From assembly GCA_947169285.1 (NCBI GenBank), contig CAMVPB010000001.1, positions 4,273-68,272 of the forward strand: a stretch of 64,000 bases of DNA, in the 5' to 3' direction. Both the position numbers and the translations under genes were made by a program. The notes beneath the pieces were generated by a model. It was not told the origin of the DNA. It did not search any database and worked only from the letters and a program-made list of their open reading frames with translations. The DNA is from an uncultured bacterium (GTDB taxonomy: Bacteria; Bacillota_I; Bacilli_A; RF39; UBA660). Every line of letters starts with the position of its first letter. The stretch's first letter is position 1. This document shows, one piece after another, positions 17,993 to 19,267 of this stretch.

Positions 17993-19267
17993 TTATTTTC
18001 CACTATATACAACTTGTATCTTAGCTTTAAACATTTTATCTTGATCATAATTTTGTGGTTCATTAATTCCTTGAAGCTTAAAATCAATATCATAAGTATG
18101 AGTTTGACCAGGTGCAATAAAAATTTTATCTAAGAATATTCCATCTTTAAATGGTGCAGTTATAAAATCAATTGATTTACAATTATTTTTGCAAGTTACT
18201 TTATATTTAAAATTGCCACTTGCAAATTCATTCGTAACATCTTGCCATTTTATAGCATACATAACATAATATGGACTCATATTGGTTACTGTAAAATGCT
18301 TAGTAGGAATTTTTTTACTATCTTCCATATCATCTGGTAATATATCTTTTACTACTACATCTGATTTATCTTTATAAACTATTTCAAGTTTAGCACTATG
18401 ATTTATAACTCTAGAATTACCAATTATTTTAGTACTACCATTTTGGGAAATTATAACTTTAGACCAATTATCAATACAAAATTCATCACAAACCCCATCG
18501 TCATCTGTATCGCAATGCAAATCACATATTTTATCCCCGTCCATATCAAGATTTAAATCAGCTTTTCCATCATTATTTGTATCCAAATCAAGATCAGGTT
18601 TTCCATCTCCATCTATGTCTAAATTAGTATCTGGCCATCCATCATTATTTGTATCACAGTTTCTAATACATACTCCATTACTGTCCTTTACATTAGTCGG
18701 ATTTAATGTATCATCACCAATTACTACATTAAATATTTGTTCTCTATTTCCTTTATAATCTATATTAACATCAGGTTTATCATCTTTATTTAAATCTATA
18801 TTAATTTCAGGTTTTTCATCTTTATTAATGTCTATATTAATATCAGCAACACCATCTCCATCTATATCTTTATTTAAATCTAATAGTTTTATATAGTTAA
18901 AAGCAGAATAAGTGGCACCTAGTATTGTGAAAAGTAAAGCACCTAATAGTAAAATTAAAAACCACAATGCAACTCTCTTTTGAAATTCAAAAGTCATTAT
19001 GTCATCTTTTTTACTAACTAATAAACCAAGTGGAAGATGTATATCATTATCTTCTTCATCACAAGAAAGTTTTAAGCACTTTAAAACGTACTTGTTATCA
19101 ACTTCAAGTTCTTTAGTACCGGTATATATATCATCTTCAAGAATTTGTCTTAAAACTTCTGCTTGTAATTTAGCATCTAGTTTGTTAAACTTATCAAGTT
19201 TTAATTCGCCATCTTTGTATACCTTATTTTTTTCTAAAAATACTTTATTTTTACTATCCATAAGCAT
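17993..19267 (-). CDS. membrane-anchored protein: cytoplasmic N-domain, TM helix, acidic Ca-binding-type repeats, C-terminal TasA/camelysin-like domain
   Basis: TM helix (ALWFLILLLGALLFTILGA). At least six D-x-(D/N)-x-D-G-x-x-D motifs (DIDGDGVAD, DTNNDGWPD, DIDGDGKPD, DTNNDGKAD, DMDGDKICD, DTDDDGVCD). The C-terminal ~150 aa shares HFTVTN.. and THTYDIDFKL..QNYDQDKMFKAKIQVV with the three paralogs at 24446-26608. Confidence 0.6.
   Translation of the reverse strand: MLMDSKNKVFLEKNKVYKDGELKLDKFNKLDAKLQAEVLRQILEDDIYTGTKELEVDNKYVLKCLKLSCDEEDNDIHLPLGLLVSKKDDIMTFEFQKRVALWFLILLLGALLFTILGATYSAFNYIKLLDLNKDIDGDGVADINIDINKDEKPEINIDLNKDDKPDVNIDYKGNREQIFNVVIGDDTLNPTNVKDSNGVCIRNCDTNNDGWPDTNLDIDGDGKPDLDLDTNNDGKADLNLDMDGDKICDLHCDTDDDGVCDEFCIDNWSKVIISQNGSTKIIGNSRVINHSAKLEIVYKDKSDVVVKDILPDDMEDSKKIPTKHFTVTNMSPYYVMYAIKWQDVTNEFASGNFKYKVTCKNNCKSIDFITAPFKDGIFLDKIFIAPGQTHTYDIDFKLQGINEPQNYDQDKMFKAKIQVVYSGK

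Follow-up and report, generated by a model that had tools for sequence, protein, structure and literature searches.

A four-part membrane protein from uncultured Bacilli

The 64,000-nucleotide stretch analyzed here (the window; contig CAMVPB010000001.1 of assembly GCA_947169285.1, from an uncultured member of the Bacilli) carries on its minus strand an open reading frame (ORF; 17993..19267) for a 424-aa protein, hereafter the target, which stands beside McrBC-like genes and, further upstream, a signal peptidase gene and three genes for TasA-like secreted proteins. An earlier note on this DNA had divided the target into a cytoplasmic domain, one transmembrane (TM) helix, acidic repeats and a C-terminal domain, and had suggested that it might anchor or nucleate a fiber. 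The four-part architecture (N-domain, helix, acidic repeats, C-terminal jelly-roll) is real: the ORF, hydropathy (one hydrophobic segment only, residues ~98–122) and an AlphaFold2 (AF2) model built from an alignment of 99 homologs (mean predicted local distance difference test score, pLDDT, 86.5) agree on it, the model comprising an alpha/beta domain at 1–97, a helix at 100–129, a confident region at 130–268, a linker at ~270–292 and a beta-sandwich at ~294–421. From the N terminus, its parts are:

18977..19267, minus strand: N-terminal domain, predicted cytoplasmic, residues 1–97; an AF2 block of pLDDT 67–94, specific to the target family
18902..18976, minus strand: hydrophobic helix, residues 98–122, ending LGATYS/AF; seen by hydropathy, a homolog of the SipW-type signals that the TasA-like paralogs carry
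18731..18874, minus strand: repeat block A, residues 132–179, four units N-[IK]-D-x-[DN]-x-D-x-x-x-[DE]-[IV]; from a register table and shuffle test
18482..18661, minus strand: repeat block B, residues 203–262, five DxD/NxDGxxD units; from a register table and family conservation
18416..18463, minus strand: flexible segment between stalk and jelly-roll, residues 269–284; part of the low-confidence region ~270–292, which runs on into the first jelly-roll residues
17996..18415, minus strand: C-terminal TasA-superfamily-like jelly-roll, residues 285–424; from hhalign, a profile hidden Markov model (HMM) and Foldseek

The target is bitopic, with its N terminus inside and its C terminus outside. 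In 115 of 120 family members, lysine and arginine are commoner before the helix than after it (15 residues on each side; means 4.1 versus 2.0), which places the N-domain in the cytoplasm and the stalk and C-terminal domain outside; the proposal of the earlier note depended on the C-terminal domain lying outside, and the charge bias supports that placement. In the model the N-domain consists of three helices (2–16, 32–47 and 58–68) and then a three-strand meander (74–95). It was found in no other architecture, a phmmer search against 1.84e9 representatives returning only the same family or fragments. Foldseek matched the target model to TilS (2e21, 1wy5) with probability 1.0 and a root-mean-square deviation (rmsd) of 1.6–2.5 Å over ~90 columns, possibly within the N-domain; a sub-threshold Pfam match of the N-domain to ZGRF1-like_N (E 0.0037) was also seen. 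Scans of Pfam, NCBIfam and PADLOC gave the target no family assignment, and a target-family profile found nothing significant among Protein Data Bank (PDB) sequences. The family, with at least 754 members (clusters) in uncultured gut Bacilli, has neither a name nor a Pfam model.

The target closes a conserved four-gene cassette

The target does not belong to a tasA operon: it occupies the conserved final position in a four-gene cassette around a membrane-anchored McrB-family GTPase. We collected 88 related loci (designated L and a number), called their ORFs and searched them with the proteins of the window; targets were clustered at 70% identity, which gave 16 informative lineages with the N-domain. 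A contig scan with a single protein query returned one locus, in a metagenome-assembled genome of uncultured Bacilli. Wherever 1.2 kb or more of upstream sequence is available, nearly all loci read, in order and on one strand, a gene that we call X (~356–380 aa), a GTPase (~491–508 aa), a DUF2357 protein (~361–369 aa) and the target, with 0–67 nt between the last two. This cassette is present in 13 of the 16 lineages; seven further lineages have relatives without the N-domain, four of them adjoining SipW, and in none of the four with enough upstream sequence was the cassette found. Since the N-domain is also confined to the target family, these counts indicate that N-domain and cassette go together. 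Sampling from the side of the GTPase yielded four further contexts (L090/L091, counted once, L092, L093 and L094), each with a target homolog as the fourth gene. In the window, the cassette and the genes upstream of it are:

19334..20437, minus strand: McrC-like protein, DUF2357, 367 aa; PF09823, E 2.6e-12, 46.9 bits against a cut-off of 23.3
20462..21958, minus strand: McrB-family GTPase, 498 aa; phmmer against E. coli McrB (6hz4) E 1.7e-7; AAA_5; PADLOC defense-candidate model PDC-M26A, E 4.6e-40
22072..23094, minus strand: X, first cassette gene, 340 aa; no TM segment, sequence poorly conserved, position conserved in the loci
23173..23682, minus strand: 169-aa protein encoded between sipW and the cassette, with a TM segment near its N terminus; kept only in close relatives
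23742..23768, minus strand: hairpin resembling a terminator where sipW ends; a promoter-like site (23728–23700) comes after it, ahead of the 169-aa gene
23754..24443, minus strand: SipW/archaeal-type signal peptidase I; TIGR02228, 84 bits against a cut-off of 51.85; SipW model E 3e-25
24446–25054, 25183–25809 and 25928–26608, minus strand: three TasA-like secreted paralogs; Peptidase_M73 (sub-threshold), hhalign and Foldseek

The paralogs do lie upstream of the target, as had been stated, but five genes stand in between, namely those for the DUF2357 protein, the 498-aa AAA_5 protein, the 340-aa X, the 169-aa TM protein and SipW, and thus include the McrBC-like pair. As a candidate for a degenerate TasA-like subunit, the 169-aa protein was rejected (TasA HMM, E 0.12, not significant).

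The GTPase bears a Walker A motif (GISGTGKT), a Walker B motif (LDEMNIA) and the signature GTINNDDST, and the alignment to 6hz4 spans all three. Hydropathy places hydrophobic segments near its N terminus (~19–84), followed by a coiled-coil-like stretch (~81–128); residues 81–128 resemble coiled-coil regions of Geminin and MreC at E 0.01–0.8, and a DivIC/FtsB model gave no match to the N-terminal region. It has at least 8000 homologs, 56–93% identical among the matches listed, and is 56–63% identical across lineages. GTINNDDST occurs in 119 of the 120 listed homologs and aligns without gaps to the MNTAD of McrB; because NNDD fits both NxD+D and NxxD, neither conservation nor the McrB alignment separates NxD from NxxD.

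In the window, 66 nt separate the McrC-like gene from the target downstream of it. Family conservation revealed no conserved nuclease motif in the C-terminal half of its product, whose C terminus is helical, Lys-rich and possibly a coiled coil, and the DUF2357-family profile found nothing significant among PDB sequences. For X, searches of Pfam, NCBIfam, PADLOC and PDB, the X-family profile included, returned nothing, and no catalytic pattern is conserved. PADLOC matched neither the target nor the DUF2357 protein, X or the 169-aa protein.

The cassette often has TasA-like, SipW-type peptidase or DUF5305 genes for neighbors. TasA-like genes were called with three-sequence and short-domain HMMs (an iterated TasA HMM drifted into multi-domain proteins). 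In 6 of the 13 lineages with the cassette, the three-paralog HMM finds TasA-like genes other than the target within 10 kb, either directly upstream of X or directly downstream of the target. SipW-like genes occur close to the cassette in L008, L010, L020, L029/30, L089 and L090. The order in L090 is X, GTPase, McrC-like, target, two 197-aa signal-bearing proteins, a SipW-like type I signal peptidase (SPase I; E 8e-45) and DUF5305, and in L094 two TasA-like genes directly follow the target. L089 is a variant with a 646-aa GTPase, an 848-aa McrC-like protein with a long coiled coil, a SipW-like gene and, on both sides, proteins with TasA-like signals.

Two side observations concern these loci. 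The 646-aa GTPase of L089 (8001–9941) carries two copies of the signature block IPPNMWYIGTANNDDSTFAITDKVYDRAMPIN (residues 349 and 484), by internal duplication or as an assembly artefact. FtsK/DUF87-type and TraG/VirD4-type ATPase genes lie a few kb upstream of the cassette in two lineages (L090 6599–8347; L092 1–5772).

The cassette is probably a transcription unit separate from tasA-sipW, as the hairpin after sipW and the promoter-like site behind it weakly suggest. Terminator-like sites are enriched (6 versus 1.1 in shuffles); promoter-like sites are not, and the terminator/promoter separation therefore carries low weight.

The C-terminal domain is homologous to the TasA-like paralogs

That the C-terminal domain is shared with the three upstream paralogs, as claimed before, is borne out both pairwise and by profile. 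BLASTP of the target against the three gave E 6e-6, 9e-8 and 2e-5, and hhalign of the target-family profile against a 22-member paralog profile gave a probability of 99.2% (E 1e-19), with target residues 285–424 aligned to paralog residues 44–196. An HMM made from the three paralogs alone matches most target-family members at E 1e-5 to 1e-12, and the paralog-profile HMM finds the jelly-roll of the target at E 4.8e-15.

Several weak but concordant lines place the paralogs themselves in the TasA superfamily: firstly, they match Peptidase_M73 (PF12389) just below threshold at E 2e-4 and 1.7e-3 (21.7 and 18.7 bits, where the cut-off is 22.5), 6 of 22 paralog relatives do so at E < 0.01, and PF12389 is precomputed on several TasA2 orthologs; secondly, the signal peptidase gene sipW lies directly downstream of them and their signal motif is of the GATFAYFS type; thirdly, hhalign aligns their profile with B. 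subtilis TasA (query sequence identical to PDB 8aur_A) in the correct register at E 2.7e-4, and the best match of the profile in PDB is the TasA-superfamily protein AbpX (E 0.18); fourthly, Foldseek with the TasA2 model retrieves TasA (8aur/5of1) at ranks 2–3 (E 0.03–0.04, TM-score ~0.37).

The structural comparison with TasA that had been proposed as a check came out less clearly for the target. Foldseek does find the TasA fiber structure 8aur_A (E 2.6e-3, probability 0.98), but at rank 9 among jelly-rolls of the carbohydrate-binding module (CBM) type; the top matches are CBMs or lectin-like jelly-rolls (E ~1e-3, TM-scores 0.2–0.45, rmsd 8–10 Å). As TasA and CBM-like jelly-rolls score alike, the structure neither proves nor contradicts the TasA assignment.

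Between stalk and jelly-roll, the pLDDT of the target drops from 76 to 41 across residues 261–290 and is below 50 at 283–291; in the model of the paralog TasA2 it is below 50 at 33–51. The flexible segment occupies the position of the disordered post-signal N terminus of the paralogs and is therefore a candidate donor strand, its placement by MAFFT being tentative.

The hydrophobic helix is homologous to SipW-type signal peptides

The three-paralog HMM matches proteins of the target family in two pieces, its signal positions (~8–41) falling on the helix and its mature positions (~50–191) on the C-terminal domain. The signal-region match is best in relatives without the N-domain (domain E 6e-4 to 9e-4). 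MAFFT likewise co-aligns the helix of the target with the paralog signals, so that the stalk appears as an insertion directly after GATYSAF. The motifs compare as G-A-[TS]-[YF]-[AGS]-[YF]-F in the paralogs, GGTWA/AFND in TasA and LGATYSAF in the target, which also aligns with GGGTWAAFND of TasA (E 0.12 when alone). Among 120 homologs, the residues at the helix exit are G in 85, A in 95, [ST] in 117, Y in 117, [SAT] in 108 and [AGS] in 104; with small residues thus conserved at −3 and −1, the requirement of type I signal peptidase is retained.

These alignments run counter to the statement that the target has no SipW-type cleavable signal, since its helix is homologous to the signals of the paralogs and keeps the G-A-[ST]-[YF]-small motif with small −3 and −1 residues; that statement is therefore unsupported. 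A SipW-cognate motif lies at the TM exit, behind a 97-aa domain, and a SipW-type peptidase is encoded nearby (23754–24443). Homology to signal peptides falls short of demonstrating cleavage of the target.

The stalk is built from acidic 12-residue units

Nine tandem 12-residue acidic units make up the stalk, four at residues 132–179 and five at 203–262. Throughout 130–268 the AF2 model forms a beta-bridge once per 12 residues. Block A is modeled at pLDDT of at least 88, and N132, D134, D138 and N144 are among its positions invariant in 99 sequences. Three CxxxC pairs (C200/C204, C248/C252 and C260/C264) are at least 90% conserved, C200 lying just upstream of block B. D-x-[DN]-x-D-G-x-x-D is found five times in its strict form, whereas 20,000 composition-preserving shuffles averaged 0.06 copies and never exceeded 2. 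Where at least six copies had been counted, there are thus five strict ones and a sixth that is imperfect (DMDGDKICD); the additional repeats described are present, as two IDxNKD(E/D)KPxxNID units.

The description of the repeats as thrombospondin-type-3/dockerin-like did not hold at the level of family models: neither TSP_3 nor Dockerin matched, even at E ≤ 10, the isolated stalk or relatives with 34–38 repeats. The top Pfam match of the stalk is the FG-GAP calcium loop, at a sub-threshold E of 0.028, and 'Ca-binding-type' is accordingly a reading of the motif. FG-GAP, thrombospondin type-3 and dockerin loops share D-x-[DN]-x-D-G-x-x-D with the target; in contrast to them, the loops of the target are uninterrupted 12-residue tandem units with CxxxC pairs, and the FG-GAP match covers the loop only. 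This tandem 12-mer with CxxxC pairs has no counterpart in the scanned libraries.

Relatives without the N-domain (L086 8465–10579, L088 9260–11746, L084, L085 and L081) are 540–828 aa long, with 17–38 copies of DxDxDGxxD and up to 78 Cys, which makes stalk length highly variable. These same relatives adjoin SipW and small TasA-like genes.

A proposed role at the base of a TasA-type fiber

Relative to a plain TasA-like subunit, the target has gained a folded cytoplasmic domain of ~97 aa and a nine-unit CxxxC stalk. It belongs to a TasA-like family, and in distant lineages, too, its homologs have TasA-like genes beside them, which makes it reasonable to place the target at the base of a fiber; to this extent the anchor proposed in the earlier note stands, though it missed the McrBC-like cassette in which the target is embedded. 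Our preferred reading, to which we give a probability of about 0.42, is that the target is a membrane-embedded base or anchor subunit linking a donor-strand TasA-type fiber to the GTPase module. The target would remain membrane-bound and form the base of a TasA-type fiber whose subunits are processed by SipW and complemented by donor strands; its jelly-roll and the flexible strand upstream of it would exchange strands with the secreted paralogs; the stalk would act as a Ca2+-stiffened spacer that holds the jelly-roll off the membrane; the cytoplasmic N-domain would dock on the McrB/McrC-like GTPase complex; and nucleotide hydrolysis might control anchoring, assembly, release or tension of the fiber, or report on it. 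A full transmembrane machine, in which an McrBC-type GTPase ring is coupled mechanically or allosterically, through N-domain and helix, to an extracellular TasA-superfamily donor-strand fiber, is conceivable but doubtful.

A number of points weigh against the anchor reading. The small −3 and −1 residues at the TM exit fit SipW cleavage, which would release the target. Three lineages (the L003 group, the L031 group and L082) have an N-domain protein without an adjacent cassette, and of the 13 cassette lineages just 3 have SipW within 10 kb and only ~6 have TasA-like genes near the cassette. The target has no Pfam match and does not reach the gathering score of PF12389 (Peptidase_M73), and its structural likeness to TasA is weak and no better than that to carbohydrate-binding modules. 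By an estimate, not a computation, a nine-unit stalk may be too short for a thick Gram-positive wall. Strand exchange, Ca2+ binding and contact between N-domain and GTPase are predictions from sequence, model and context, and cleavage, polymerization and the role of the GTPase are likewise things that we infer.

The main rival takes the first of these points at face value: SipW would cut after G-A-T-Y-S(121) and the mature protein would be a stalked minor, spacer or tip subunit of a TasA-like fiber, leaving the N-domain and helix stub to be recognized, cleared or used as a signal by the GTPase, for instance to license export or to count subunits. Homology of the helix to cleavable signals speaks for such release, as do the small −3 and −1 residues in at least 90% of 120 homologs and the relatives without the N-domain, which have ordinary-looking signal regions, the GATYS motif and up to 38 repeats and stand beside SipW. 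However, a conserved, folded domain of 97 aa ahead of a signal peptide would be unusual for a discarded leader, SipW rarely adjoins the cassette, and the motif could be conserved for helix packing or for SipW binding without cleavage. On balance we hold release to be unlikely.

Improbable is a third possibility, that the target is the outside-in sensor of a conflict or defense system, its jelly-roll detecting phage adsorption, a ligand or a pull and its N-domain signaling to the GTPase, as in CoCoNuT-type systems. The target does have the architecture of a bitopic receptor, the McrB-family GTPase matches a PADLOC defense-candidate model (PDC-M26A), and CoCoPALM, the published system that the cassette most resembles, branches next to the CoCoNuTs (PMC11090510). 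But the cassette holds no recognizable nuclease or effector (the McrC-like C terminus is unconserved and X lacks a conserved catalytic pattern), for which reason this reading has little to support it; the other four proteins scanned have no PADLOC match; the cassette recurs with fiber-subunit and peptidase genes; and the GTPase shows 56–63% identity across lineages and the cassette has the look of vertical inheritance, unlike fast-evolving defense islands.

Synteny disfavors the model of the earlier note, that the target is a TapA-like nucleator or anchor of the tasA-sipW operon, which would make the McrBC-like genes an unrelated insertion. The jelly-roll homology and the proximity of three TasA-like genes and SipW in the window are what that model explains; across lineages, however, the invariant neighbors are the McrBC-like genes and not tasA or sipW, a terminator-like hairpin follows sipW, and the target bears no similarity to TapA, so that we regard the model as very unlikely. 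Scarcely credible is a stalked carbohydrate-binding adhesin unrelated to fibers, with the jelly-roll as a CBM-like lectin on a Ca2+ stalk: CBMs and lectin-like jelly-rolls are indeed the top Foldseek matches (E ~1e-3), but at TM-scores of 0.2–0.45 and rmsd of 8–10 Å, and the profile match to the TasA-like paralogs (E 1e-19) outweighs these by far.

Other genes of the window

The remaining observations concern genes outside the cassette. Divergent from the outermost TasA-like gene is a gene for a full-length YfhO-family membrane protein (26741–29263, plus strand; PF09586, E 9e-163), so placed that glycosylation or envelope modification might have to do with the fiber locus. Directly downstream of the target lies a Bro-N-like protein (16980–17774, minus strand; sub-threshold, E 6e-4), and an ORF6N-domain protein is encoded at 31551–32420 (minus strand; E 8e-35); Bro-N and ORF6N are domain types common in mobile elements and phages. 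Two proteins without a Pfam match are encoded on the minus strand. One (431 aa, 12199–13494) has, by eye, a charged, coiled-coil-like N terminus, a hydrophobic segment (LIAGVAGVLAVATLAFAIG), a Thr/Val/Pro-rich linker and a C-terminal domain; the other (506 aa, 10660–12180) has a hydrophobic N terminus (KKGFGLSSLILSIILIALFVL) and then Cys-rich tandem units, with at least three copies of YSCPSGYK(A/E)EGSGSS(T/L)KCYKNVTTTT. A 788-aa fusion (5246–7612, minus strand) joins a sugar-transfer-associated ATP-grasp domain (residues 77–312) to MurT (Mur_ligase_M, MurT_C), the N-terminal addition being unusual; the gene that follows it (4557–5249, minus strand) presumably encodes a GatD-type amidotransferase.

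Significance and comparison with known systems

TasA-type fibers of bacteria and archaea are thought to assemble extracellularly, with no energy input and no dedicated machine, and McrBC-type GTPases are known as DNA-translocating restriction motors. If the anchor reading is true, the cassette would extend McrBC-type GTPases to a role at the cell surface; the full transmembrane machine, if real, would be the first device driven or gated by nucleoside triphosphates for assembly, release, retraction or signaling in a class of filaments regarded as energy-independent. In any case, the analysis defines a large unnamed family (at least 754 clusters; partner GTPase at least 8000), built on a 12-residue Ca-type repeat stalk that had not been described. 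How fibers attach to the cell is open in several systems; the BsaA fibers of C. perfringens, for example, are membrane-anchored by a factor that is unidentified (PMC11580942), and the target offers a concrete anchor candidate.

TapA of Bacillus subtilis resembles the target as an accessory protein of a TasA fiber system acting at initiation or anchoring. The analogy drawn in the earlier note goes no further than this: the two share no sequence similarity, the target having no Pfam or NCBIfam match of any kind; TapA is secreted and encoded in the tapA-sipW-tasA operon, whereas the target belongs to an McrBC-like cassette, probably a different transcription unit, with different operon partners; and TapA works as a chaperone by strand donation and complementation, not as a transmembrane protein (PMC10151520).

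With TasA, CalY and AbpX (Peptidase_M73) the target shares the jelly-roll, a signal motif of G-x-T-aromatic-small form with a SipW-type peptidase nearby, a disordered segment at the donor-strand position and acidic, Ca2+-type chemistry of the sort reported for AbpX. It differs from them in lacking a significant direct sequence match to TasA or Pfam M73, and in having an extra 97-aa cytoplasmic domain ahead of the helix and a repeat stalk of ~140 aa; that it polymerizes would follow by analogy.

Loci of the TasA superfamily include genes for SPase I, DUF5305 proteins, minor subunits and membrane anchors, and the pairing of SPase I with DUF5305 seen in L090 is assigned to AbpX and Tafi loci (bioRxiv 10.64898/2026.01.04.697558; PMC12337348). 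In archaeal Tafi, TafF, TafF1 and TafF2 are proposed membrane anchors composed of a TM helix and a jelly-roll (PMC12337348). Compared by architecture, not homology, TafF is like the target in having a single TM helix and a jelly-roll in a TasA-superfamily locus, with DUF5305 recurring in L090; it differs in being archaeal and in having no reported cytoplasmic domain, Ca-type stalk or McrBC-like partner, and its anchor role is itself proposed. By analogy, the Tafi anchors are a reasonable, if proposed, precedent for a role at the base of a fiber.

The closest likeness of the cassette as a whole is to CoCoPALM, described by Bell et al. (eLife 2024, PMC11090510) as an McrB GTPase of the NxD clade fused to an FtsB-like TM segment and coiled coil, with a coiled-coil McrC homolog and an association with signal-peptidase-family 'pilus assembly' proteins. 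That description is a single sentence, with details deferred to a later paper; a literature search found no such follow-up, and for SipW together with McrB it found only a mention in an E. coli genotype. The window's signature NNDD leaves NxD indistinguishable from NxxD, and FtsB homology was not detected with the tools used. By sequence the cassette appears to fit CoCoPALM: an McrB-family GTPase follows TM segments and a coiled-coil-like stretch, a DUF2357 McrC homolog is adjacent, genes of the signal peptidase family are near (in the window, sipW is the second gene upstream of the cassette), and the host belongs to the Bacillota. The accessible text of that description contains no component list, fourth-gene protein, TasA-like domain, repeat stalk or X, and the cassette described here would thus give the first component-level picture of a system named in 2024.

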